IMG/VR virus record: IMGVR_UViG_3300020045_003196
Span: 1-43,190 of that record
From: a virus
Lineage: Duplodnaviria > Caudoviricetes
Length of the DNA: 43,190 bases
Strand: one strand, 5' to 3'
Below, one piece after another: positions 829-39,265 of this stretch; the stretch's first letter is position 1, and every line of letters begins with the position of its first letter. The position numbers and the translations under genes are program-made. The notes beneath the pieces were generated by a model that was given only the letters and a program-made list of their open reading frames with translations, searched no databases and was not told the origin of the DNA.

Positions 829-857
829 ATTCTATCTCTGCGGCGAATCACAGACAA
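829..857 (-). promoter_or_regulatory. sigma70-type promoter for the HNH leader and gene
   Basis: TTGTCT (857-852)-N17-TAGAAT (834-829). Confidence 0.7.
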
Positions 858-884
858 TAAAAAGCCCCGTCCGAGGACGGGGCT
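857..884 (-). terminator. Intrinsic terminator after the primase and candidate sRNA
   Basis: AGCCCCGTCC-TC-GGACGGGGCT followed by TTTTATT on the - strand. Confidence 0.9.
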
Positions 885-916
885 AGCGGCTTTGCTTTGA
901 CAGGAGCTTGCCGGGG
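857..916 (-). ncRNA. Candidate trans-acting anti-RBS small RNA (~60 nt)
   Basis: Own promoter (923-951) and terminator (857-884); hairpin CGGC-AA-GCU-[CCUGUCAA]-AGC-AAA-GCCG exposes GCUCCUGUCA, complementary to the GACAGGAG RBS of six genes. Confidence 0.6.
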
Positions 917-922
917 AATTCC

Positions 923-951
923 AGATTATGCAGAAGGCATGCCAGTGTCAA
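923..951 (-). promoter_or_regulatory. sigma70-type promoter overlapping the primase 3' end, driving the candidate sRNA
   Basis: Perfect TTGACA (951-946)-N17-TAATCT (928-923). Confidence 0.7.
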
Positions 952-1798
952 GCTTGGCATATGGGTCGCGGCTTATCGGGTAGACGGCGTGACCGCGCTC
1001 AACCAGGTCATCAAGCTCTTCAGGGTATGCTGCGACCATGGTGAAAATGTGCTTTTGCTGGTACTGCATCCAAGTGAAATTGTCGGGATCTATCGCAGCT
1101 CTAACGATAGATCTGCCGCCACGTCGCCACCAGATACGCCAGGCGTCCGCATAACCCAAGCAAAGAATTATCTCGTTGTCGTGCACGAAATTATCAGGGT
1201 CTGCGAGATTGCAAGGCAGAATGTCATGGGTCGCGCCATAGGTCGGCCCACCCGCAACCCAGTCAACCCGATGGTCTCGGATGGCGGCCATGTTCAGTCG
1301 CTTACCTGATCGCTCAACAAGCACGATTAGCACGCCATTCAGATCTGTAACCCTTTCGTGAGGCGCAGTATTGCGAGCGACCAGATACGGGTGCTGCTCG
1401 GAGAAATGTAGGCGCTTGGCGATCTCGTCGCACTTACCCTCATCCTCGCAATTGCCGGACGGGTAATTCACCCGCTGCGATTCGGCCTTCTGCTTGATCA
1501 TTTCTGGCGTGACTGTGACAGGCATATTGCCGACGATGGCCGCCACCGCATCGCGGAATTTTAGCGACTCATACTCAGCTACGAAATTGACTGCATCGCC
1601 ACCCGCGCCACAGCCAAAGCAGTAATAAAAACCTTTCTGCTCATTGACGCTGAATGACGCTGATTTTTCCTTGTGAAATGGGCAGCAGGCCATCCAGTTT
1701 TTGCCGGCTTTCTTGAGGTCGATTCGCTTGCCGATCACTTCAACTATGTCGTAGTTGGCTTGGTCGATTACTGATTGCGGAATGCCTTGCTCGCTCAT
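926..1798 (-). CDS. Primase-like protein: DnaG-type CHC2 zinc finger plus degenerate TOPRIM-like domain
   Basis: CCPFHKEKSASFSV...YYCFGCGAGGD zinc finger; start MSEQ overlaps the upstream stop (ATGA-type coupling). Confidence 0.85.
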   Translation of the reverse strand: MSEQGIPQSVIDQANYDIVEVIGKRIDLKKAGKNWMACCPFHKEKSASFSVNEQKGFYYCFGCGAGGDAVNFVAEYESLKFRDAVAAIVGNMPVTVTPEMIKQKAESQRVNYPSGNCEDEGKCDEIAKRLHFSEQHPYLVARNTAPHERVTDLNGVLIVLVERSGKRLNMAAIRDHRVDWVAGGPTYGATHDILPCNLADPDNFVHDNEIILCLGYADAWRIWWRRGGRSIVRAAIDPDNFTWMQYQQKHIFTMVAAYPEELDDLVERGHAVYPISRDPYAKLDTGMPSA

Positions 1799-2253
1799 TT
1801 CTGAAGCGCCATCAACGTTGGCAGCTTGATCGCCGGAATGCGTCCGCGCGACTTCCAGGTATGGTAATTCGCCACGGTGATATAGGCGGCGGCGCAAAGA
1901 GCTTCGACGCTGCCGTATTGGGCGGCCAGCTTAACCAAGAGCTTGGCGTCGGCAGTTTTAGCTTCTGGCGGCGATCCTGGCACCGGGCCTGGCGGTTCGC
2001 GGCCCCATTCTTCATCGGAAAGATCTGGCCTGAATTCCCGCTTGTCGCGCTTGGTTAGTTCAGCCATAGCTTCAGCCCCGCGAATGGACATGCGACCAGA
2101 ATAGACCCACTGACGAACCGCCATCGGACTGACGTTTAAAAACGCCGCCAGCTTGGTCGGCCCCTTATGCAGCAGGATCGCTCCGAGCAGCATGTTGCCT
2201 TCAGGTGTTTTCGACAACCGCTCAATCGAGCGGCTTGATAGATTTTGCGGCAT
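1795..2253 (-). CDS. Transcriptional regulator with two tandem Cro/YdaS-like HTH domains
   Basis: GPTKLAAFLNVSPMAVRQW...RPD and GSVEALCAAAYITVANYHTWKSRGRIP separated by a Pro-rich linker. Confidence 0.7.
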   Translation of the reverse strand: MPQNLSSRSIERLSKTPEGNMLLGAILLHKGPTKLAAFLNVSPMAVRQWVYSGRMSIRGAEAMAELTKRDKREFRPDLSDEEWGREPPGPVPGSPPEAKTADAKLLVKLAAQYGSVEALCAAAYITVANYHTWKSRGRIPAIKLPTLMALQK

Positions 2254-2263
2254 CACGTCACCC

Positions 2264-2319
2264 GTTGACATAGTGATTATTTGGGCTGATATTACCACCT
2301 CCAAAGTTATTATGACAAC
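2264..2319. promoter_or_regulatory. Overlapping divergent promoters with operator motifs
   Basis: + strand TTGACA (2265)-TAGTGATTAT..-GATATT (2288), N17; - strand TTGTCA (2318-2313)-N18-TAATAT (2294-2289). Confidence 0.7.
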
Positions 2320-2336
2320 CGACAGGAGCGTCACGC

Positions 2337-2794: not shown

Positions 2795-2816
2795 TCACTC
2801 GACAGGAGCAACACCA

Positions 2817-3734
2817 ATGGCAGTCTACACCCTGAATAATATCGCCTCCGACAAGGCCAACGAAGCCGCCAAACGTGGCGATGCGATCCGCGTCAAGCTG
2901 GACAAAATCGTAATCGTCGAGGGCTTCAACGTCCGCGAAAATGACGACGACCTGCGCGAGCACATTGCAAGCATCGCGGGCGCCATCGCTGCCAATCTGC
3001 CGATCCCGCCGATTGAGGTCTGGACGAATCCTGAAACTGGCTCCATTGAGTTGGTCGACGGTCATTGCCGTGTTCAAGCCTATAAGCAGTTCGCCGAAAC
3101 CGGCGCTGAGTTTGATGGCTATATCTCGGCGGTGAAATTCGACGGCACGCCAGCACAGCGCAACCTGCGGATCGCAACCAGCAACCGACAGAAGTTGCTG
3201 AAGCCTGTTGAGCTGGGCCGTGTGTATCTGCGCGCTCGCGATGTCGACGGCATGAGTCGCCAGGAGATCGCGACGGAAGCAGGCGTCAGCGTTTCGCACG
3301 TTGACCAGATGCTTTTGTTTGCGACTGGCAGCGTGGCCGTACAGCAGGCTGTTGCGCGCAACGAGATCTCGACCACCGAAGCTGTCAAGCTGATGCGCGA
3401 TCACGGCGAGAAGGCGCCCGAAGAGTTGGAGCGCCGCAAGGAAGTTGCCAAGGCGAGCGGAAAGGAAAAGGTCACCGCCAAGGTTGCAGCGCCAAAGCCG
3501 CCGTCACGGCCGAAAGTTGATTTCGTTACGTCATGCGCCGTTGTTCTGGTTGGTTCTTTGAGTGAAGAAGAAATATCCGCGCTTGAGACTTCCTTGATTG
3601 ATCCTGTCACTCAAAAACCCGTTAACAAAATCGTTCGTGGCGATCTGCTTCTTGATCTGATCAGCGCAGTTCGCGAAATGAAGCAGGGCGCCAAACCGCT
3701 GGACGCCGATAAGCAGCAGGAGCTTTCGGTATGA
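2817..3734 (+). CDS. ParB/Spo0J-like protein (ParB N-terminal domain plus HTH)
   Basis: GFNVR...PPIEV...LVDGHCR motif and MSRQEIATEAGVSVSHVDQML HTH; RBS GACAGGAG at 2801. Confidence 0.85.
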   Translation: MAVYTLNNIASDKANEAAKRGDAIRVKLDKIVIVEGFNVRENDDDLREHIASIAGAIAANLPIPPIEVWTNPETGSIELVDGHCRVQAYKQFAETGAEFDGYISAVKFDGTPAQRNLRIATSNRQKLLKPVELGRVYLRARDVDGMSRQEIATEAGVSVSHVDQMLLFATGSVAVQQAVARNEISTTEAVKLMRDHGEKAPEELERRKEVAKASGKEKVTAKVAAPKPPSRPKVDFVTSCAVVLVGSLSEEEISALETSLIDPVTQKPVNKIVRGDLLLDLISAVREMKQGAKPLDADKQQELSV

Positions 3735-4360
3735 ATCGCTACTACATGAAGTCTACAGATAGCCGTTATGTCGAGGCCTTCAAGGAGCTGCGCGCAATGG
3801 CGGCGGCCCGCTTTCACTACCTGCACGCCAAGGCCAAAAGCCTAGGCTTTGATGAAATAGCCGTGCATGACTTCGGCGCCGACGTTTCTTTTTACAAGAA
3901 GCGTGAAGGCATTTCCCCAGCGCGAAAAGGCGAGCCTATCGAGGGCTTTAAGGGTGGCGAGCTGACCTACCAAAAACAAGGTTCGTTCTTCTGCTACCAG
4001 CTACGCCAGAACAACAAAACAGCTAACGCCATTCGCAAGGATATTGCCGCAGGAATGCCAGAGCGCCCCGCCGAATTAAACGGCGACCTGTATTGGCGCA
4101 GACCTACTATCAGCGCTGTTTTCTGCTTGCGGTACGCGCTTCCTGATGGCGTCTATGATGGCAGTCATTCCATTGGGTACGGTCAGGTCTACTTGCTTCA
4201 AGACAGCATTATTGCTTGCAGCCTTCCGTATCGCGACGACGACAGCAAAGATGCGGCGCCAGCGGTATTTCCAGAAGGCTTTGAAGAGATTACCGAGCGC
4301 GCACTGGTCGCCGAAATTGACGAGCACAATAAATCGCTAGGGGGCGCCGATGCTCCTTAG
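3731..4360 (+). CDS. Hypothetical protein
   Basis: 209-aa ORF with ATGA coupling to the ParB-like gene. Confidence 0.75.
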   Translation: MNRYYMKSTDSRYVEAFKELRAMAAARFHYLHAKAKSLGFDEIAVHDFGADVSFYKKREGISPARKGEPIEGFKGGELTYQKQGSFFCYQLRQNNKTANAIRKDIAAGMPERPAELNGDLYWRRPTISAVFCLRYALPDGVYDGSHSIGYGQVYLLQDSIIACSLPYRDDDSKDAAPAVFPEGFEEITERALVAEIDEHNKSLGGADAP

Positions 4361-6308
4361 CTTTCAAAAGCCAGCAGTGACGGCCTTGTGCCGTCACTTC
4401 CGAGCCCGAGAGACAGCCAAGTTCGGCGACCGCGACATTCACCCGCCCATCATCGTTTCCGCCTCGGTATCGTCCGGTAAGTCGGTGATGCTTGCCGAGT
4501 GCGCCAAGGCGCTGCTGGATGCTCAAATTGAGCGCGAAAGGGCTGCCGGTAAGGCTGGCGATCCAACCATGCGTATTATGGTCATTCAGCGCCAAGGCAT
4601 CCTTTGCCAGCAAAACAGCGAGGCGGCCTGGAGCATCAACCTCAGGAACTCCCTGTTTAGCGCTTCATGCGGAAACCTCAAGTCAACACGCTTTGAGGTT
4701 GTATATGCGACCGAAGGCACAATTGCGCGCGCCCTCGGCCAATACCGCTTTAGCCTCTGGACGCCTGAAGAGTTGGAGCGTGATGCTCAATGGCGAGGCC
4801 GCGCCGGTAAATTTCACCCCGACTTAATCCTTATCGATGAAGGCCACCAGGTTCCGTTTGAGCAGCCTGATTCGCAGTACATGAAGACGCTCCTGCACTT
4901 CTACGACTGCAAGCCGCACATGCGCTTAGCCTGCATGACGGGATCTCCTTTCCGGGGAATGGCATCCATCGTTGGCGATACGCCGCAACACCTCTGGAAG
5001 AAGGTCGCCAGCATTGAGCCTGGCGATCCTGACTATCCAGAGGGTGGCGTCGGCAACGGCATCATCAGCACCGAATTTATGATTGAGCAGGGCTGGGTTG
5101 TGGCTCCGACTTTTGGCTATCCAGAGGATGAAAACACCCACTACGATTTCAGCCATCTATCAACTGAAACCTGGGACTACCCCGAAGCCGAGCTTGACGC
5201 CGTAGTCAGCGACAAAGCGCTGTGCCTTGCGATCTGCGCGGACTTTATCAAGAAGAGCGCCGACAGGAAGGGTGTATTGGTTTTCGCCTCTACGCAGCGG
5301 CATACGCGGCAGATATCGGCAGCTATGAAACTGCTCGGCGTTGATCCTGAGCAGATCGGCGTGATCATCGACTCAACCACGCAGAAAGAGCAGACAAGGA
5401 TTTTGACGGCAGCCAAAGCCGGCAAGCTGAAATACGTCATCAACGTCTCAGTGCTGACCACTGGCGTCAACGTGCCTTGGTGGGATACCGAAGTCTTGAT
5501 GCGACCCATAGCCTCTATCGTTCTGCTCATCCAGGCTATTGGCCGAATCCTGCGCCTGCTTATCGCTGACAACGAAATGCCAATGGTTGAGCGTGATGCT
5601 TTGACTGCTGAGCTTCGCCGCCTGCTGATTGAGGCCAGTGGCAAACCTGACTCGCTGGTGCTGGATTACGCGGGCGTGATGGATACCTTGGGTCATTTGT
5701 ACTCCAATCCAGTGCTTGAAATGGCTGAGCTTGAGAAAGCCAAGAAGGAAGGAAAAGACCTGATCGAATGCCCCAAGTGCATGGCGATGAATAGTCCTAA
5801 CGCCAGACGCTGTATCGGCGGCACAATCCAGGAGCGCTGCGACTATTTCTGGCATTCCCGTATCTGCCCCGGGTGTGGAACTGAGAACGATCAGGTGGCG
5901 CGCGAATGCCGCTCATGCCGACGTATGCTCATCGACCCCAATGCCGCGCTTAACGGTAAGCATTATGTCGAGGGTGAGTCTATTCCGGTGCGCGCTGTTA
6001 AGGCTGGCGCTGGCGCTGGTGGCAAGTTCTTTATCCGCTACGAATTAGCCGACGGCGAAACGCCGATTGAGGTCTTTTGGCCGCACACGGGAAACAACAT
6101 CAAGGTCAACAATCAGATCTGGTACAAGTTCGTCGATCAGTTGCCGATTGATCTTCCGAGTAAGTTCCGGCTCAAGGCTATGAAAGCAAAAACCATAGAA
6201 GAAAACATCCACTTGATACCCTTTCCGGTCGAGGTTTCGGCGCGCAAGAAGGGCAGCAAATGGACTGTTGGGCAGCGGAAGTATGCAGCCGAGGAATTGG
6301 CCTTATGA
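4350..6308 (+). CDS. SF2 (DExH) helicase with C-terminal zinc ribbons, RadD/YejH-like
   Basis: ASVSSGKS Walker A, IDEGH, MTGSP, VLTTGVNVP, QAIGRILR; four CxxC-type pairs. Confidence 0.9.
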   Translation: MLLSFQKPAVTALCRHFRARETAKFGDRDIHPPIIVSASVSSGKSVMLAECAKALLDAQIERERAAGKAGDPTMRIMVIQRQGILCQQNSEAAWSINLRNSLFSASCGNLKSTRFEVVYATEGTIARALGQYRFSLWTPEELERDAQWRGRAGKFHPDLILIDEGHQVPFEQPDSQYMKTLLHFYDCKPHMRLACMTGSPFRGMASIVGDTPQHLWKKVASIEPGDPDYPEGGVGNGIISTEFMIEQGWVVAPTFGYPEDENTHYDFSHLSTETWDYPEAELDAVVSDKALCLAICADFIKKSADRKGVLVFASTQRHTRQISAAMKLLGVDPEQIGVIIDSTTQKEQTRILTAAKAGKLKYVINVSVLTTGVNVPWWDTEVLMRPIASIVLLIQAIGRILRLLIADNEMPMVERDALTAELRRLLIEASGKPDSLVLDYAGVMDTLGHLYSNPVLEMAELEKAKKEGKDLIECPKCMAMNSPNARRCIGGTIQERCDYFWHSRICPGCGTENDQVARECRSCRRMLIDPNAALNGKHYVEGESIPVRAVKAGAGAGGKFFIRYELADGETPIEVFWPHTGNNIKVNNQIWYKFVDQLPIDLPSKFRLKAMKAKTIEENIHLIPFPVEVSARKKGSKWTVGQRKYAAEELAL

Positions 6309-6658
6309 TCATGGTTAAGCAGCGATTTGAGTTTGACTGCGGCTGCGCGGCAGTCGCCTCTCTGTGTCAGGTTACATACGAGCAGGCGGCCGAAGCATGG
6401 GAAAGAGCGCTAAGCAGAAAGCCGCACGCATCCAATTACAAACACTTGCTAGCAGTGATAGCGCAACTAGGTATGCAGGGTTATCGCGTCTCTTCAGGGG
6501 ATCGCTGCATAAGATTTGTTCGTGAAAAACCGCGCCTAAGAACCGGGCATTGGGTGGTTGTTGTCGGAGAGTCTTTATGGTGCCCAACTGCTGGATGGTT
6601 TCAGCTAAAGGCTGACTACCCCTGGAAGTTTTTTGGCAGGGGGATAGCCATAAAATGA
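6305..6658 (+). CDS. Stand-alone peptidase C39-like protein
   Basis: QRFEFDCGCAA and GHWVVV motifs; ATGA overlaps on both sides. Confidence 0.65.
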   Translation: MIMVKQRFEFDCGCAAVASLCQVTYEQAAEAWERALSRKPHASNYKHLLAVIAQLGMQGYRVSSGDRCIRFVREKPRLRTGHWVVVVGESLWCPTAGWFQLKADYPWKFFGRGIAIK

Positions 6659-7071
6659 TCCGCATCTATGACAGCGGCTATCGGGGCGAATGTCGCCGCG
6701 AAGAGCTGGAGCAAATCGACTGTGCATCCTGGCTCCAGTTCAATCACCCGGACCGCTGGCCGCTGGTCTGGCATGTACCGAACGAGCTGACCGTAGACAA
6801 GAAAAAACCCGGCTGGGCTCAGCACCTCAAAAAGCGGCAAAAAATGGGGGTCAAAAATGGCGTCTCGGACATCATCGACTTCGGTATTCAGCGTGGCGCC
6901 TTTGAGCTGAAACGCCTGGACAGGCAGAAGTCGACCCCGGTAACTAAGGAGCAGCGTGACTTTCTAAAGTCGGTCGACGAGTCGGGCGGGTTCGCCGCGA
7001 TCTGTTACGGCTTCGAACAGTTCAAGCTGGCCTACGCCGACTATCTGGAACGGTGCGGAAATATCGGTTGA
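6655..7071 (+). CDS. VRR-NUC domain nuclease
   Basis: WHVPNE, GVKNGVSDII, FELKR, EQRDFL (PD-(D/E)xK pattern). Confidence 0.85.
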   Translation: MIRIYDSGYRGECRREELEQIDCASWLQFNHPDRWPLVWHVPNELTVDKKKPGWAQHLKKRQKMGVKNGVSDIIDFGIQRGAFELKRLDRQKSTPVTKEQRDFLKSVDESGGFAAICYGFEQFKLAYADYLERCGNIG

Positions 7072-7096
7072 CATAATGATTATGCGATACCAGAAT
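7067..7096 (+). promoter_or_regulatory. Early promoter with palindromic operator
   Basis: TTGACA (7068)-TAATGATTATGCGATAC-CAGAAT (7091). Confidence 0.8.
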
Positions 7097-7121
7097 CACC
7101 GCTGTAGACAGGAGATAACTG

Positions 7122-7346
7122 ATGGAAAGTTGGGTAAGAATCACAGAGGCGCCACCAATTGAGTTTACCGGGCAGACATTCGAAGCTCGCGAAGTGTGGG
7201 TGTCAGACGGCAAATATGTTTGCACCACCGAGTATCACGTGGGCGGCGGCCATATTGGCAAGCCATGGGGGTCTTTTCAGTCCTGCGACGGGCTGGCAGG
7301 ACCGATAACCCATTGGCACCCAAAGCCGCCGCCACCCACAATTTAA
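7122..7346 (+). CDS. DUF551-like small protein
   Basis: N-terminal W..I.E.PP and C-terminal ITHWHPKPPPP; RBS GACAGGAG at 7107. Confidence 0.7.
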   Translation: MESWVRITEAPPIEFTGQTFEAREVWVSDGKYVCTTEYHVGGGHIGKPWGSFQSCDGLAGPITHWHPKPPPPTI

Positions 7347-7367
7347 TTCCCTGACAGGAGCAAAAAG

Positions 7368-7658
7368 ATGATCAAGACAATCGAAATGCACATGTATCTA
7401 GTGGTTGGCGAGCATGGCACCTATAGCACGGTTGACAGCATGGACTGGCGCACGATGCCCTCCTGCATGAAGGGCCGCACCTGGCTTGGCAGCCAGACCG
7501 TCGACTTTAACTTTCCCGATATAGACGAGCATCAGGCCGCGATTGACGCACTGAATGCAACCATTCAACAGGAGCGGGTCGAGTCTCAAGCCAAAATTAA
7601 TCTGCTGCTTGAGCGTATCAGCAAGCTTCAGGCCATTGGTCATGAGGTGGCAAAATGA
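7368..7658 (+). CDS. Hypothetical protein with C-terminal coiled coil
   Basis: 96-aa ORF, RBS GACAGGAG at 7353. Confidence 0.75.
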   Translation: MIKTIEMHMYLVVGEHGTYSTVDSMDWRTMPSCMKGRTWLGSQTVDFNFPDIDEHQAAIDALNATIQQERVESQAKINLLLERISKLQAIGHEVAK

Positions 7659-9161: not shown

Positions 9162-9191
9162 GTTGACATAATGATTATTCAGGGTCAAGAT
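9162..9191 (+). promoter_or_regulatory. Early promoter with palindromic operator
   Basis: TTGACA (9163)-TAATGATTATTCAGGGT-CAAGAT (9186). Confidence 0.75.
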
Positions 9192-9214
9192 TGCCAAAAG
9201 ACAGGAGTATTCAG

Positions 9215-9427
9215 ATGGTTCAAATAACACAAATCCTTCGCGAGCACGCCGACTCAAAAGGCTTCACGATGGAAAGCGTCCAGGCTCAACCAGCTTTCGA
9301 AATGGCGGCCAAAATGGCTGATGCCGGCTACAGCGTAAAGCTTGGTCGCGACCCTGGCACGCCCTGGATTGTCACTGTGCGCGAGGTGATCAAATGCAAT
9401 CCAATCGAATCAGTAACTATGCACTAA
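9215..9427 (+). CDS. Hypothetical protein
   Basis: ATG 9215 with GACAGGAG RBS at 9200. Confidence 0.7.
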   Translation: MVQITQILREHADSKGFTMESVQAQPAFEMAAKMADAGYSVKLGRDPGTPWIVTVREVIKCNPIESVTMH

Positions 9428-19778: not shown

Positions 19779-20326
19779 TTGGACGCCTTCCTGTAGCCGT
19801 TTCGGTAAAGGGTTTCACAAAAACTCTTTCGGCTTGTAAGCCCCATCGCTGAGCGCTCATCGGGAGGGTCTAGCGCCAGCATTTCTTCGACAGCGATTTG
19901 CTCGGCGGTTTTAGCTGGGAAAATCATTTCGGCGCGGAACACTTCGCAACCGAGCACTACGCCGCCATCGACAGCAACCATATTAATACCGTTTGTGGTG
20001 GTGAAAACTGCCATCACAACCAGCCAGCGATTCAGGAAGTCCAGCGACTCATTACGGATAGCGAAGCCCATTGGTTTTACCTGAACAACCGCTCCAACTG
20101 GCGGCAGGCCTTCGCCAGTCCAGGCACCCGGGCGCCCAGCAATCAGCGTCCAGCCATGATTAGGCTTTGTCATGTCTGCCATACCTTCGAAACCGATTAC
20201 CTTAGGAACGAACGCCTGTCTAAAGCTGTATGTGCCGAATTTCTGCGCCCAATACAGATTATTTTCATCGTCTGAAATCACAGTCTCCGCCCACTTTGGA
20301 GCCTTACTCCAGTCAACGCCGCTCAT
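19775..20326 (-). CDS. Hypothetical protein (moron cassette)
   Basis: DWSKAP.WA N-terminus, WTGEGLPPVG, LYRNGYRK; resembles phage early accessory proteins. Confidence 0.75.
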   Translation of the reverse strand: MSGVDWSKAPKWAETVISDDENNLYWAQKFGTYSFRQAFVPKVIGFEGMADMTKPNHGWTLIAGRPGAWTGEGLPPVGAVVQVKPMGFAIRNESLDFLNRWLVVMAVFTTTNGINMVAVDGGVVLGCEVFRAEMIFPAKTAEQIAVEEMLALDPPDERSAMGLTSRKSFCETLYRNGYRKASK

Positions 20327-20745
20327 TTCGCAACACTCGACGCAGCAGCATCAACCAGGGCGCGAAAGCCAAGCGGATTGCGCACGCCCTTCATGACCGC
20401 ACTGTTACCACCAGAGCCTGCAATAATAACGGTTCCATAGCCAAACATGCGGCCTAGCAGACCTTGTTGAACGCTGACCGACTCGACTTTTTCAAGCTTG
20501 ATCTCGGTCGTGTCGCGCATGATCAGGCCTGATTTGCGTACCACGCGCTTGCTGGTCACGCCCATTTCAGTAGTGGCAATCAGGATGAAGGCATAGAGGA
20601 GCAACATGGCAGTGAGCGGCAGCAGGATCAGCGTTACGCCAAACAGCAGGGCTGCGAAATACAGATGGAACATGCTCCATTTGGACAGGCTGCCGGTGCC
20701 AATAACCGTCTCGTCAGCGCCAAGGGTGTCGGTGATGTAGCTCAT
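20323..20745 (-). CDS. Membrane protein with bacterial PH-like domain (YdbS/bPH_2-like)
   Basis: Two TMs then VTSKRVVRKSGLI...EIKLEKVESV.V.QGLLGRMFGYGTVII. Confidence 0.8.
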   Translation of the reverse strand: MSYITDTLGADETVIGTGSLSKWSMFHLYFAALLFGVTLILLPLTAMLLLYAFILIATTEMGVTSKRVVRKSGLIMRDTTEIKLEKVESVSVQQGLLGRMFGYGTVIIAGSGGNSAVMKGVRNPLGFRALVDAAASSVAK

Positions 20746-20781
20746 GAGAATCTTCCTGTAAGCGCGTCATTGCGCAGACAT

Positions 20782-20811
20782 AGAATCGGCTGACATAATC
20801 ACTATGTCAAC
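20782..20811 (-). promoter_or_regulatory. Early-type promoter with extended palindromic operator inside the tail operon
   Basis: TTGACA (20810-20805)-TAGTGATTATGTCAGCC-GATTCT; TGACATA-N5-TATGTCA inverted repeat. Confidence 0.8.
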
Positions 20812-20818
20812 ATAATTA

Positions 20819-21160
20819 TTATACCGGCACTTCCAGTCCGCGCAGATCCTGCATCTCTGCCGCATCCACAAAATACATTTCGCAGCGACCTTCACTGAAG
20901 TCGCCCAGACGGAATGGCGCTAAACCGCTGCTATCGGTAGTCGATACGAAAAAATCAAAAGGCCAGTTCAGCGAGCGGATATGCAAGCACCCCAGGCTTA
21001 GCATGAAGCCGTTGAATTGCTCGCCGCGCCAGCTGATATCCATCGACCAGAATTCAGAGGTTTCCCAGAAATAAAGGTTGACCGTGATCTCTTCGTCACC
21101 CACCAGCAGAACATGCCGCTGCCTGGGCTCATCGGTGATATTCGTTACTTGGTAAGCCAT
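20819..21160 (-). CDS. Baseplate-associated protein
   Basis: 113-aa ORF in the conserved position between tube initiator and hub. Confidence 0.7.
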   Translation of the reverse strand: MAYQVTNITDEPRQRHVLLVGDEEITVNLYFWETSEFWSMDISWRGEQFNGFMLSLGCLHIRSLNWPFDFFVSTTDSSGLAPFRLGDFSEGRCEMYFVDAAEMQDLRGLEVPV

Positions 21161-25910: not shown

Positions 25911-26409
25911 AGATCAAACCTCTTTCGCCGATTATGCGGAGCTGGGCGGTGTCGATGCGCAGTATATCAACAACCACGGATGGGCAGTAGTGTACCTGGC
26001 ATTCCAGTTGCATGCGTTCGCCGTACTGCTGACCGGTCAAGGCCTTAACGTCAGTCATGGAGCTTGGATGCCAGAGTGTTATCGCAAGGCTCTGCTGAAG
26101 CTCAAGTGATGCTTCAGAGCGGCAAAGCAATCGGAAGCGCTGAGCGGTAACCGGCGCGTCAGGCCCGTAAAAATCGAAGGTGACAAAGCGCGAAACCCGC
26201 TCAGAATAAACCATCTGCTCGGTGTCGCCGTCGTACTGCTGATCGCTGGAAAATGGCCGGTCACCCGCCACGGAGTCGACCACAATAAACGGTTGCTCAA
26301 AGTGCTGGCGGTCGAAGTTCTGCCGCCCAGCTTTGATGAATTCTTCGGGGTGCGACAGGAGATCGCGAACGAAGCGCATCAGCGCGATGTACAGAGGGTC
26401 TCTGGTCAT
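25900..26409 (-). CDS. Tail completion/terminator protein
   Basis: Position before the sheath; FDFYGP motif. Confidence 0.7.
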   Translation of the reverse strand: MTRDPLYIALMRFVRDLLSHPEEFIKAGRQNFDRQHFEQPFIVVDSVAGDRPFSSDQQYDGDTEQMVYSERVSRFVTFDFYGPDAPVTAQRFRLLCRSEASLELQQSLAITLWHPSSMTDVKALTGQQYGERMQLECQVHYCPSVVVDILRIDTAQLRIIGERGLIYEQ

Positions 26410-36431: not shown

Positions 36432-36610
36432 TCCCTGATACGCTGCTGGCACCAAAAGAAGACCAGCCCAAAAAACAACGCATAGACCTAGCTTTTGAGC
36501 TGATGGTTTTGAGGTGCGGCATCGGCTGCCTTATTGCTGATCAGCCTATGTCTAATAACGATTACGTGCGCTTGCATTTGGCCATGTCTAGATTGGGTAA
36601 AACAAAATGA
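36428..36610 (+). CDS. Hypothetical protein
   Basis: 60 aa, ATGA-coupled on both sides. Confidence 0.65.
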   Translation: MIPDTLLAPKEDQPKKQRIDLAFELMVLRCGIGCLIADQPMSNNDYVRLHLAMSRLGKTK

Positions 36611-38310
36611 GCCATCCAGTTTACCGGGACGCAATTGAAGACCTAGAAAAAGAAACGGTTGATCTTGGCGCGATCAATGAGTATCTGGATTCACGGTTTA
36701 AAGAAGAGGTGGCTGTAAGCACCGAAGACGCTGCCGCTAATGAAATGATCGCCGAGATCATAGAACTTAGCATTGCCGAAGAAGTTGATCGTTTTCCTTG
36801 GCGCGAGCCAAATCTTCCAAGTAGCGGGCTAGAGAATCGTTACTCAATATCAAAGATACTTGATCTTGATTATTTGGATGGTAACCCATCGATAATGGCT
36901 AGGATGGCGCGGGAAGCATCAAGGGTTATCCAGTTCCCGGAGAACACTGCTTACCTGCATGGGCTTGGCTGCTTCTCATCAGGATCAGTTGTTAACTTTC
37001 AAGTTGAGTACAACCACAAGTTTATCCCTACTGGGCTTTATACTTTGTGCGCTCAACCATCGGGCTCCGGGAAATCTTCGGCTCACGGTTATTTCATTGA
37101 TCCCATTCATGAGGCGCTTGATCGTCGCAATCATCTGCTGTTTATGCTGCACAAGAACATAGATGGCGAAATTGATGCGCTGCACAAGCTGGCTGACAAA
37201 GCCAAAACTGATCAGCAGATGCTGAAGACGTATGCGCAGGCCATGCAGTCGCTAAACGATGAGAAAATGCGCAGCCCTATCGTTTATGCGGCCAAGAAGA
37301 ACGCCACGCCGCAGTCAGCCGAAGAGCAGGCGGTCAAGCAGGGTGGAGTGTTTAGCGTCTGCTCTGATGAGCAGGAGGCGATTGATACCTATCTGGGGTT
37401 GTCGTACACCGACGGCAAGACAAGCCCCGACAACGGCGTGTTTATTGCGGCCTTCGGTGGCGACCTGATGGGTACGGCGCGCATCAGCCGGGCGGGCATC
37501 ACCATTCCCGTGCGCGGCGCCTTTGCGGTGGTTGCGCAGAATTCCGGGGTTGACACGATTATTAGGGCTGGCGCTGCTGGTCGCGGGGTAAGCGAGCGAT
37601 GCTTGATCCTCAAAGAACCGAACATGATCGGTTATCGGACCTATACAAGAGAGGATGGTTTTTTTGATCGCGAGCTTTCCGCTGAATACGCGGCGCTGTG
37701 TGAAAACATGGTGCAAGGCGAGTGCAATCGCAGGCTGACATTCTCCGAGCAGTGCCGCGACATGATTGTTGATCTGAAGAATTTGGTCGAGCCACAGTGC
37801 AGGCCTGGAGCCAAATACGGTGACACGCAGATCAAAGGCTTCGCCTCAAAGATTCAGCAGCACGTCATAAAGATGGCGGCAAATTTCCATATCGCTGAGC
37901 AGTGGAATCCCAAGATCACAAAGTCGCCATCGTTCGAAATACAGGAGCCGCACCTACTGAAGGCCATGCGTATCTGTATGGATCTGCTGGACAGTTACAA
38001 GGTGCTGATCGAGTCGGAGTCCGACATGTCGGCATCAAAGCTGGTGGTGTTCATCATTGGCGTAATGAAGGGCTATGCGCTCAAGGGTACGAAGAATTTC
38101 AACCTGGACAAACTGCGTCTATCTGTCACAAAAGAATCATGGTACGGCGCTATTGAGGGCAAGAAAATCGACTTCCTGCTCAACCTGCTGACCCGCTGCG
38201 AGGAAATGAATTTTTGCCACATCAAGGAAACCGGAAAGGATAAAAAGCACTGGCAGGTTCTGATCAACCCGGCGCTGAAGACCTTCACCATTTCGCTTGG
38301 GGATAACTGA
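36607..38310 (+). CDS. DUF3987/YfjI-like P-loop ATPase, putative replication helicase or origin-binding protein
   Basis: QPSGSGKS Walker A, NATPQS, SDE Walker B, GVSERCL arginine-finger-like motif. Confidence 0.75.
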   Translation: MSHPVYRDAIEDLEKETVDLGAINEYLDSRFKEEVAVSTEDAAANEMIAEIIELSIAEEVDRFPWREPNLPSSGLENRYSISKILDLDYLDGNPSIMARMAREASRVIQFPENTAYLHGLGCFSSGSVVNFQVEYNHKFIPTGLYTLCAQPSGSGKSSAHGYFIDPIHEALDRRNHLLFMLHKNIDGEIDALHKLADKAKTDQQMLKTYAQAMQSLNDEKMRSPIVYAAKKNATPQSAEEQAVKQGGVFSVCSDEQEAIDTYLGLSYTDGKTSPDNGVFIAAFGGDLMGTARISRAGITIPVRGAFAVVAQNSGVDTIIRAGAAGRGVSERCLILKEPNMIGYRTYTREDGFFDRELSAEYAALCENMVQGECNRRLTFSEQCRDMIVDLKNLVEPQCRPGAKYGDTQIKGFASKIQQHVIKMAANFHIAEQWNPKITKSPSFEIQEPHLLKAMRICMDLLDSYKVLIESESDMSASKLVVFIIGVMKGYALKGTKNFNLDKLRLSVTKESWYGAIEGKKIDFLLNLLTRCEEMNFCHIKETGKDKKHWQVLINPALKTFTISLGDN

Positions 38311-38513: not shown

Positions 38514-38826
38514 CCTAACCCTGTCCGACGGCAAAACCTTCCGCTGCGTGTGCCTGGAGAGTGCTGGCGATCCCGCCGAAGACATCCGGCAGATCGCTTT
38601 GCCCTTCCAGACTGGCGCGCATCTGGTAACCATCTCCAGGGTAGTGCCGCCGATACCGGACAAGCTGCCTTGGAAGCGAACAGGGGAGCATGAATGGCGG
38701 CTTGCCAATTTCACTTTGACGCGAACGCCTGGAGGGTTCCAGGTTGATTGGCCTGGCGGATCGGCAAGCGGTGGGCGCGATGAGATAGCTTCGGCTGTCC
38801 GTAAGAATTGGGCTTTTGGGTGTTGA
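38500..38826 (+). CDS. Hypothetical protein
   Basis: 108 aa, GAGGT RBS. Confidence 0.7.
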   Translation: MQSYDLTLSDGKTFRCVCLESAGDPAEDIRQIALPFQTGAHLVTISRVVPPIPDKLPWKRTGEHEWRLANFTLTRTPGGFQVDWPGGSASGGRDEIASAVRKNWAFGC

Positions 38827-38851
38827 CATAATGATTATGCGAGCCTAAAGT
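38822..38851 (+). promoter_or_regulatory. Early promoter with palindromic operator
   Basis: TTGACA (38823)-TAATGATTATGCGAGCC-TAAAGT (38846). Confidence 0.8.
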
Positions 38852-38885
38852 TCACTCAACGAAACGAACAACAGGAAGCGCCGAG

Positions 38886-39029: not shown

Positions 39030-39073
39030 CCAACCCCGCCCGGTTCGCCGCGCAACCCCTGACAGGAGCCGCC

Positions 39074-39265
39074 ATGAACACCGAACCCAAAACAGTCGCC
39101 CAGCTCTGCCTTGATCAGCCCGACCCATATGCCGCCGCTCAACTGATCGCGATCTATCAGGGCAAACTCGGCTTCACCAAGACCATGCACTTCAACGATG
39201 GCAGTTGCCTGAAGTTCAAAATCACCTATACCGCCATGGAAGTTGGCAGGAGCGAAGACCAATGA
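39074..39265 (+). CDS. Hypothetical protein
   Basis: ATG 39074, GACAGGAG RBS at 39061. Confidence 0.7.
   Translation: MNTEPKTVAQLCLDQPDPYAAAQLIAIYQGKLGFTKTMHFNDGSCLKFKITYTAMEVGRSEDQ

Follow-up and report, generated by a model that had tools for sequence, protein, structure and literature searches.

A candidate small RNA encoded at the end of a phage primase gene and predicted to repress a tagged set of the phage's own genes

Pairing of a seed across a Shine-Dalgarno (SD) sequence blocks 30S loading. The P4 CI RNA is grouped with c4 of phages P1 and P7 as a short, loop-presented antisense to the phage's own ribosome-binding site (RBS) region, and c4 is cut from a precursor of its own target transcript. 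The cuckoo and alpha-r14 anti-SD RNAs consist of repeated CCUCCUCCC hairpin modules. Here we analyse the 43,190-nt viral sequence IMGVR_UViG_3300020045_003196 over its whole length (the window), which encodes a candidate small RNA (sRNA) on the − strand at the end of the primase gene. The unit comprises a promoter, a seed, GCUCCUGUCA, and an intrinsic terminator, and the complement of the seed, GACAGGAG (the tag), lies at the RBS of six genes. Unlike the cuckoo and alpha-r14 RNAs, it contains a single module with CUCCUGUC and has no Rfam match. A first-pass annotation had proposed that one trans-acting sRNA could switch off a dispersed gene set through a standardised RBS. Conservation of the unit and covariation of seed and tag support this proposal, and we assign a probability of roughly 0.7 to the reading that the conserved unit encodes a ~60-nt RNA acting in trans to repress translation of genes of the phage itself, most of them early.

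Among the systems cited here and below, the nearest tested case of one seed directed at many leaders of its own element is SviR of the PLE satellite. This RNA has its own promoter and intrinsic terminator and a conserved seed whose pairing with the 5' leaders of several of the satellite's own genes in different operons is either predicted or demonstrated, and RBS occlusion was shown for one target (bioRxiv 10.1101/2022.04.08.487710). Compared by description, the candidate RNA is like SviR in having one seed complementary to many own leaders and a conserved promoter and terminator. Unlike SviR, which is 210 nt long, encoded by a satellite and furnished with another seed aimed at the helper phage, it would measure about 60 nt, belong to an autonomous tailed phage and have one conserved seed block, and its tag changes with the seed between lineages. 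The likeness to c4 lies in a short loop-presented sequence pairing at the RBS region of an own mRNA, in allele-specific pairs (PMC12197685), the pairing here being computed. However, c4 acts on one antirepressor transcript of a temperate phage, whereas here 3-9 scattered leaders of helix-turn-helix (HTH), ParB-like and small genes are involved and the RNA has a separate promoter. As there is no Rfam match and no antirepressor or integrase match in the window, the RNA would work like c4 but is not a member of the c4/CI class. Hfq-type 3' untranslated region (UTR) sRNAs, VpdS and PreS share a length of 50-90 nt, a seed, an intrinsic terminator with a U-tail and action in trans, all predicted here, but they act largely on host mRNAs or sRNAs and none is described there with a common tag on the phage's own leaders (PMC12197685).

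The closest precedent for the tag itself is the start-associated sequence (SAS, ESAS) of cluster K mycobacteriophages and cluster EF Microbacterium phages, an asymmetric, over-conserved motif found at RBSs of non-structural genes (PMC3203893, PMC11373665, PMC7302621). An inverted-repeat promoter lies upstream of about half of the SAS copies, and a single copy in the opposite orientation occurs in four K1 genomes (Pope et al. 2011, PMC3203893). The role of these sequences was stated as unknown in 2011 (PMC3203893), 2020 (PMC7302621) and 2024 (PMC11373665). Like SAS/ESAS, the tag is an asymmetric RBS motif of which a single copy is inverted and lies away from any gene start; the motif lies on the early strand for 120 of 144 tagged leaders across the genomes described below, and a promoter with an imperfect inverted repeat precedes about half of the motifs (68/144). 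It differs in its consensus, (T)GACAGG(A/G)G(C) over 8-10 nt against 13 bp in clusters K and EF, and in the hosts; no RNA partner is identified for SAS/ESAS in the accessible text. In 35 kb of Adephagia (JF704105) we counted 16 forward SAS copies and one inverted copy, which folds into a 10-nt loop capping a long, nearly perfect hairpin between gp92 and gp93, at about 58,660-58,720 (L443:33660-33720) on the early-gene strand. In 36 kb of Pixie there were 18 forward copies and no inverted copy. The unit had initially not been recognised as a described system. This holds for the RNA, since our literature search found neither it nor its layout in a lytic tailed phage, most subscription papers and supplements lying outside its scope (Fig. 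S3 of Pope et al. and phage RNA-motif catalogues may bear on the point), but SviR and SAS/ESAS are precedents for the layout.

We located relatives with a profile of the primase C-terminal protein sequence alone, which returned 25 viral loci; in 24 of them the seed and terminator directly follow the primase stop. Together with the window and the cultured Pseudomonas phage Amjad_SA, the whole contigs examined (G-numbered genomes) came to 28. The full unit, TTGAC-N18-TA(A/G)N(C)T followed by seed and terminator, is present in 26 of the 28, including Amjad_SA, where the region concerned is 44280-44347 of its record; G025 has no unit, and the G026 contig ends inside the primase gene. All 26 units keep TTGAC and the 17-nt spacer, and in 24 the −10 hexamer coincides with the stop codon. 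Where the −35 lies within the gene (25 units), its codons are always NTT-GAC-(A/T)NN, while the residues encoded at the variable positions change (V, L, I, F and R, T, K, M, N, C). The G015 gene ends one codon sooner, with TGA, and its TAGCCT is still 17 nt from TTGACA, and in G024 the entire promoter is outside the primase gene. Codons fixed despite varying residues, and promoters uncoupled from the gene or its stop, argue that the promoter is selected as DNA and is no by-product of the protein sequence. The predicted RNA is 57-65 nt long in 25 units and 72 nt in one. Seed and terminator are the invariant parts of the 26-unit alignment (A4), with two-sided changes at five of eight consensus terminator pairs, and the 5' half forms some hairpin in every unit with the seed largely unpaired.

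A promoter-plus-seed pattern scan yielded 13 new loci that were left out of these counts, which rest on the protein-only set because the scan loci are biased by the pattern itself. An earlier terminator-based DNA pattern scan gave 26 viral loci, none with a primase match, and these were judged to be chance. A covariance model (R1) held terminator pairs only and mostly found terminators, its best non-self match being the G032 unit. Complementarity between the −35 region (TTGACAG) and the seed occurs in 20/26 units; since it is absent in the window, Amjad_SA and the sister lineage, we took it to be incidental. A fourth seed type may exist in G025 (L038:6476-6580), where the longer gap before the terminator includes C-rich sequence able to pair with a leader of the same genome over 8 nt, one of the pairs being G-U.

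In the window the promoter and terminator proposed at the outset were confirmed, including hexamers, spacer, stem and U-run (Table 1). The unit had been placed between the primase and HNH genes, but the promoter is not intergenic: the −35 hexamer lies within the last codons of the primase open reading frame (ORF), and the stop codon TAA supplies the first three bases of the −10. The primase 3' UTR is where the RNA would lie, and the terminator likely also ends the repressor-primase mRNA. The two-stem fold first drawn is the minimum free energy (MFE) fold of 850-920 (−), with a z of −3.65 owed mostly to the terminator, but that exact fold is not conserved; CUGUCA of the seed is unpaired in the window fold. 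An Rfam check gave no match in the window at the gathering score and 18 weak matches in 780-1000, none of them c4 or reaching its cut-off. Two + strand readings of the same interval were rejected: 897-902 as a −35 has no −10 at 16-18 nt, a TTG ORF at 908 has an RBS spacing of 1 nt, and neither is conserved.

The tag occurs eight times in the window against 1.0 expected, a number reached by none of 100 shuffles. The match at 899 is the inverted copy within the unit, six lie 5-8 nt before an ATG, and the eighth, at 26354, is antisense to a late gene and does not serve as an RBS. The six are the + strand sites originally reported, with the same lengths of perfect pairing (Table 1). When 68 window leaders were ordered by seed duplex, the tagged ones took ranks 1-5 and 7, with computed energies of −15 to −19 kcal/mol versus −7 to −8 for the anti-SD, before opening costs. 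The leader at rank 6, missed initially, is that of the VRR-NUC-like gene at 6655 and has only 5 nt of perfect pairing. Of three partial matches suggested in addition, that before terS came at rank 8 (7 nt, −15.0 kcal/mol), and 38871 and 20759 (6 nt, −11.6 and −11.4 kcal/mol, ranks 18 and 19) were rejected as targets because their duplexes are at background level among the 68 leaders. A second common leader 8-mer, ACAGGAAG, precedes four genes, at 38871, 20759 (−), 19794 (−) and 29490 (−), and pairs over 6 nt with the seed; the leader at 38871 is also found in G026. Shuffled versions of the 33-nt 5' domain of the RNA reached six leaders in 3/5000 trials, and in 56/5000 with CUCCU held fixed.

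Outside this phage group the tag is rare at gene starts. GACAGGAG-N5-10-ATG has 26, 9 and 15 copies in three Pseudomonas genomes of 6.0, 3.7 and 6.5 Mb, or ~0.13 per 43 kb (50 per 16.2 Mb) against 6 in the window. GAC precedes RBS-like AGGAG at 127/377 sites in the 23 genomes whose seed has the U described below (an uncleaned count), compared with 4/355 in unrelated viral loci (1.09 Mb), 0/52 in Pseudomonas dnaG loci, 1/6 in four control phages and 1/28 in genomes with a C seed. The four control phages, cultured and with distant ParB-like genes, hold one GACAGGAG RBS-like site in four genomes. Tagged starts are present in 17/17 records that are at least 90% complete, and the tag appears to be private to this phage group. 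Across genomes it marks ParB-like genes (17 leaders), small-protein families, an AAA ATPase, an exonuclease and many singletons; the set differs between genomes, suggesting that genes gain and lose the tag.

Seed and tag covary between lineages. One seed is common to 23 of the 26 units, and C replaces U in G016, G006 and G015. After dropping three gene-internal matches, one terminal-repeat duplicate and the single site of G025, we counted 125 GACAGGAG (GGAG) versus 11 GACAGGGG (GGGG) starts in U-seed genomes, and 1 GGAG versus 7 GGGG starts, plus 2 GACAGGGA, in C-seed genomes. The asymmetry fits RNA pairing, as U pairs with A or G and C only with G. One orthologue family divides into 5 GGAG members with the U seed and 2 GGGG members with the C seed, and another divides 2 versus 1. 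In both the primase tree and the repressor tree, G015 falls separately from G016 and G006.

A helicase profile extended the comparison to 40 loci, of which 15 were examined further and 4 cover the primase 3' end. In three of these four sister loci a unit sits at the same place with another seed. G032 and G033 carry CCCUCUCU at the same position and matching tags AGAGAGGG, with leaders AGAGAGG(G); G031 carries ACCCUCACU with a AGUGAGGGU leader. In G030 the terminator comes straight after the primase stop and neither tag type is found at starts. A further fragment (L434) has a CCCUCUCU unit and two AGAGAGG(G) leaders. We then matched RNAs to leaders across genomes, counting a leader if it had at least 8 perfectly complementary bases and taking gene starts from a crude caller. 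The window RNA matched 6/75 of its own leaders, 1/76 in G032, 2/77 in G033, 1/74 in G030 and none in three control phages, and the G033 RNA matched 6/77 of its own, 8/76 in G032 and 0/75 in the window. Seed and tag thus change together between lineages; among relatives promoter, seed and terminator are kept together, and a check for relatives with a retained RBS but a lost complementary loop did not refute the proposal, one relative being without both. Since the tag and its mirror change together, one RNA likely switches the scattered gene set off.

The proposed mechanism begins with host polymerase, which would make the RNA from infection onward from the sigma-70-type promoter in the primase 3' end, free of the operator-like site described below. 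The 8-10-nt seed would pair with the private tag over the SD sequence of 3-9 own genes and block their translation. Amplified along with DNA replication, the accumulating sRNA would silence the first cistrons of early transcripts. A second layer may come from the HTH protein whose gene lies upstream of that of the primase, which would close early promoters while the sRNA silences early mRNA already present. The motif TTG(A/G)CATA(A/G)TGATTAT matches six times in the window, against 0.04 expected, and its palindromic core covers part of the −35 in five promoters and part of the −10 in the promoter of the ParB-like gene, in operator fashion. Such a site stands immediately ahead of four of the six tagged window genes, and across genomes the core is upstream of the 68 tagged leaders noted above but of only 32 of 1216 others; no operator-like site was found near the sRNA promoter. 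The arrangement suggests a double shut-off by repressor and sRNA, with the Cro/YdaS-like HTH protein as the obvious candidate binder of the operator-like sites.

Several observations concern these sites. They are similar across relatives, though the HTH proteins are only 34-56% identical. The core, ATAAT-N-ATTAT, resembles Fur-family boxes, and a host regulator is therefore possible. Between the Cro/YdaS-like gene and the 66-residue HTH gene (2253-2337) lies a divergent promoter pair in a switch-like layout, with a second imperfect palindrome near 2305-2317 and no integrase matched. A bPH_2 membrane gene at 20323-20810 (−) is inserted among the tail genes with its own operator-bearing promoter, and relatives carry other tagged genes inserted on the late strand.

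A number of results weigh against a conserved repressor RNA with early targets. The 5' hairpin is weak: in none of 29 cases does it fold more stably than 95% of flank-shuffled versions (median p 0.18), RNAalifold on a MAFFT alignment recovered the terminator only and no consensus 5' stem, and several MFE folds pair two seed bases; the two-stem fold is for these reasons not a conserved feature. The targets had been described as early genes, yet 24 of the 144 tagged leaders are on the late strand, including inserted genes and a few late genes. Phage Persinger has one tag, G025 has one tagged RBS and no recognised unit, G016 (C seed) retains one GACAGGAG leader, and in G024 the 5' flank of the seed has changed to U while 6/8 tags keep C. 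In the cross-matching the GC-rich RNAs of Amjad_SA, G015 and G016 gave 4-6 off-diagonal matches, among them 6/84 for the Amjad_SA RNA in G016 and 4 each for the G015 RNA in Persinger and FoX3. A single origin of the C seed is not rejected (approximately unbiased test p 0.35), which leaves one or two events, and a Fisher p of 1e-6 overstates the U/C covariation since the change may be one event. The sister promoters (TTGATT-17-TAAGGT) are weaker consensus matches and were picked by eye.

Among alternative explanations, the RNA of a first phage might serve mainly in exclusion, silencing the early genes of a later relative with the same tag, so that seed types would be immunity groups. The diversification of seed and tag together into at least three types is consistent with this, as is the part of c4 in P1/P7 heteroimmunity (PMC12197685). 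We consider exclusion as the main role unlikely. No integrase or antirepressor was matched among 69 window proteins in a PHROGs scan; the primase C-terminal profile gave 3 weak matches and no close copy or prophage in 401 Pseudomonadaceae genomes; Amjad_SA is reported to be lytic with a 20-min latent period (PMC12968170); and one seed in 23/26 units is little diversity for an immunity determinant.

Improbable as well is an origin or mode of action other than that of a separately transcribed occluding RNA. The seed might be carried by the 3'-terminal part of the repressor-primase mRNA, or by a piece processed out of that mRNA, as the terminator also closes the upstream operon and the −10 is a modest consensus match that coincides with the stop in 24/26 units; the promoters of G015 and G024, retained when uncoupled from the gene, argue against this. 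The RNA might otherwise direct cleavage or guide a phage protein, and SviR is described as changing the cleavage of its own element's transcripts. Occlusion is favoured over such modes because the seed covers the whole AGGAG.

A sequence-specific protein, whether a phage DNA- or RNA-binding protein or host RsmA, could also recognise the tag, the inverted copy being an extra DNA site in a short transcript. Covariation alone does not discriminate between recognition by protein and by RNA; the tag includes the core of RsmA/CsrA sites, GGA; and the SAS papers leave a protein partner open. Several features make this decidedly improbable: tags are always at SD spacing; inversion is confined to the copy between promoter and terminator; G opposite a U seed is tolerated and A opposite a C seed avoided, in line with G-U pairing; GGGG tags no longer contain the GGA core; and an RNA decoy would carry the tag itself, not its complement. 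Finally, an ordinary terminator with an accidental anti-SD stretch facing favoured strong RBSs would be in keeping with the complementarity of CUCCU to any SD sequence and with the 56/5000 CUCCU-fixed shuffles that reach six leaders, but this is very improbable and largely refuted by the invariant seed columns of the 26-sequence alignment, by the tag GAC, which is not anti-SD complementary and is rare elsewhere, and by covariation of the whole seed.

With its terminal repeat, the 43-kb window represents a complete circular phage genome. Terminase, capsid and tail are encoded among the 69 scanned proteins; the late module, of the contractile-tail type, occupies the − strand, and the replication genes and small early genes occupy the + strand. 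Its closest cultured relative found is Amjad_SA, with identities of 43-45% in primase, 61% in the ParB-like protein and 64% in the helicase; the words sRNA, promoter and repressor do not occur in the Amjad_SA paper. We infer a Pseudomonas-type host. A second helicase-like gene (DUF3987) lies on the early strand at 36607-38310, besides a superfamily-2-type helicase at 4350-6308. The G032 primase (L420:2424-3320) joins a different N-terminal zinc-finger region to the same C-terminal domain, a domain swap. About 96 full-length relatives of the primase are known. P0002 and P0003, the closest database relatives of the window primase, have a different C-terminal tail, so their unit may differ. Matches to Dolphis and Jeremy by blastn were rejected as relatives of the unit because they are located in the primase zinc-finger region. 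Beyond the terminator, an endonuclease VII/HNH gene at 741-857 (−) comes with a promoter-like site of its own (857-829), and its structured leader gives a weak Rfam match to int-alpA (22 bits, below the cut-off); among the sequences listed, leader and gene start recur after the unit only in G010. A 358-nt contig from a DNA sequencing run (X1) matches window 897-964 only, covering promoter and seed with 2 differences, and has a different 3' arm and terminator; as a single contig it was not used as support.

Table 1. Positions in the window of the candidate sRNA unit, its predicted targets and associated features
Feature	Position	Strand	Remarks
−35 hexamer TTGACA, within primase coding end (Leu-Asp-Thr codons)	946..951	−	predicted sRNA promoter
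−10 hexamer TAATCT; 928-926 = primase stop codon	923..928	−	17-nt spacer to −35
Predicted small RNA, ~58-61 nt	857..917	−	start inferred from −10 position
Seed GCUCCUGUCA, complement of RBS tag	898..907	−	invariant columns of alignment A4; unpaired probabilities
Intrinsic terminator, 9-bp stem and U-run	859..884	−	stem 884-863, U-run 863-859
Tagged RBS of 66-residue HTH gene (2337-2537)	2321..2328	+	9-nt match
Tagged RBS of ParB-like gene (2817-3734), first of helicase operon	2801..2808	+	9-nt match
Tagged RBS of 74-residue gene (7122-7346)	7107..7114	+	8-nt match
Tagged RBS of 96-residue gene (7368-7658), ahead of exonuclease VIII gene	7353..7360	+	10-nt match
Tagged RBS of 70-residue gene (9215-9427)	9200..9207	+	8-nt match
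Tagged RBS of 63-residue gene (39074-39265)	39061..39068	+	10-nt match
Leader of VRR-NUC-like gene (6655-7071), possible, uncertain seventh target	6633..6654	+	rank 6/68 via G-U pairs
Primase (CHC2 zinc-finger), host gene upstream of unit	926..1798	−	PHROGs phrog_6444; PF01807
Cro/YdaS-like helix-turn-helix gene (152 residues), candidate repressor	1795..2253	−	phrog_35 E 2e-8; PF15943 and PF14549 below cut-off
Promoter −35 with palindromic operator-like site TTGACATA(A/G)TGATTAT	2265..2280	+	motif match
Further operator-like sites	2779-2794, 7068-7083, 9163-9178, 38823-38838	+	motif match
Further operator-like site	20795-20810	−	motif match; operator-like site over the promoter at 20795-20822

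To our knowledge, the turn-off of early genes in lytic phages that lack a polymerase or sigma factor of their own is mostly unexplained. If true, the repressor RNA proposed here would be a concrete, minimal mechanism for early-gene shut-off, for which three seed/tag alleles occur in nature and Amjad_SA is available as a cultured carrier; because these alleles exist, allele-swap tests need no invented mutations. A broader view, which we hold to be an even bet, is that genes join an RNA-addressed regulon by acquiring a barcode over the SD sequence, that one 60-nt RNA reads the barcode, that lineages re-code both, and that together with a repressor this is a general early-to-late switch of virulent phages that also explains SAS/ESAS. 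The inverted copy in the hairpin loop of Adephagia offers a testable answer to the role of the cluster K sequences, a question since 2011. On the same reading the tag would mark which small genes of unassigned function are co-regulated, and the seed/tag pairs would be compact orthogonal translational switches.
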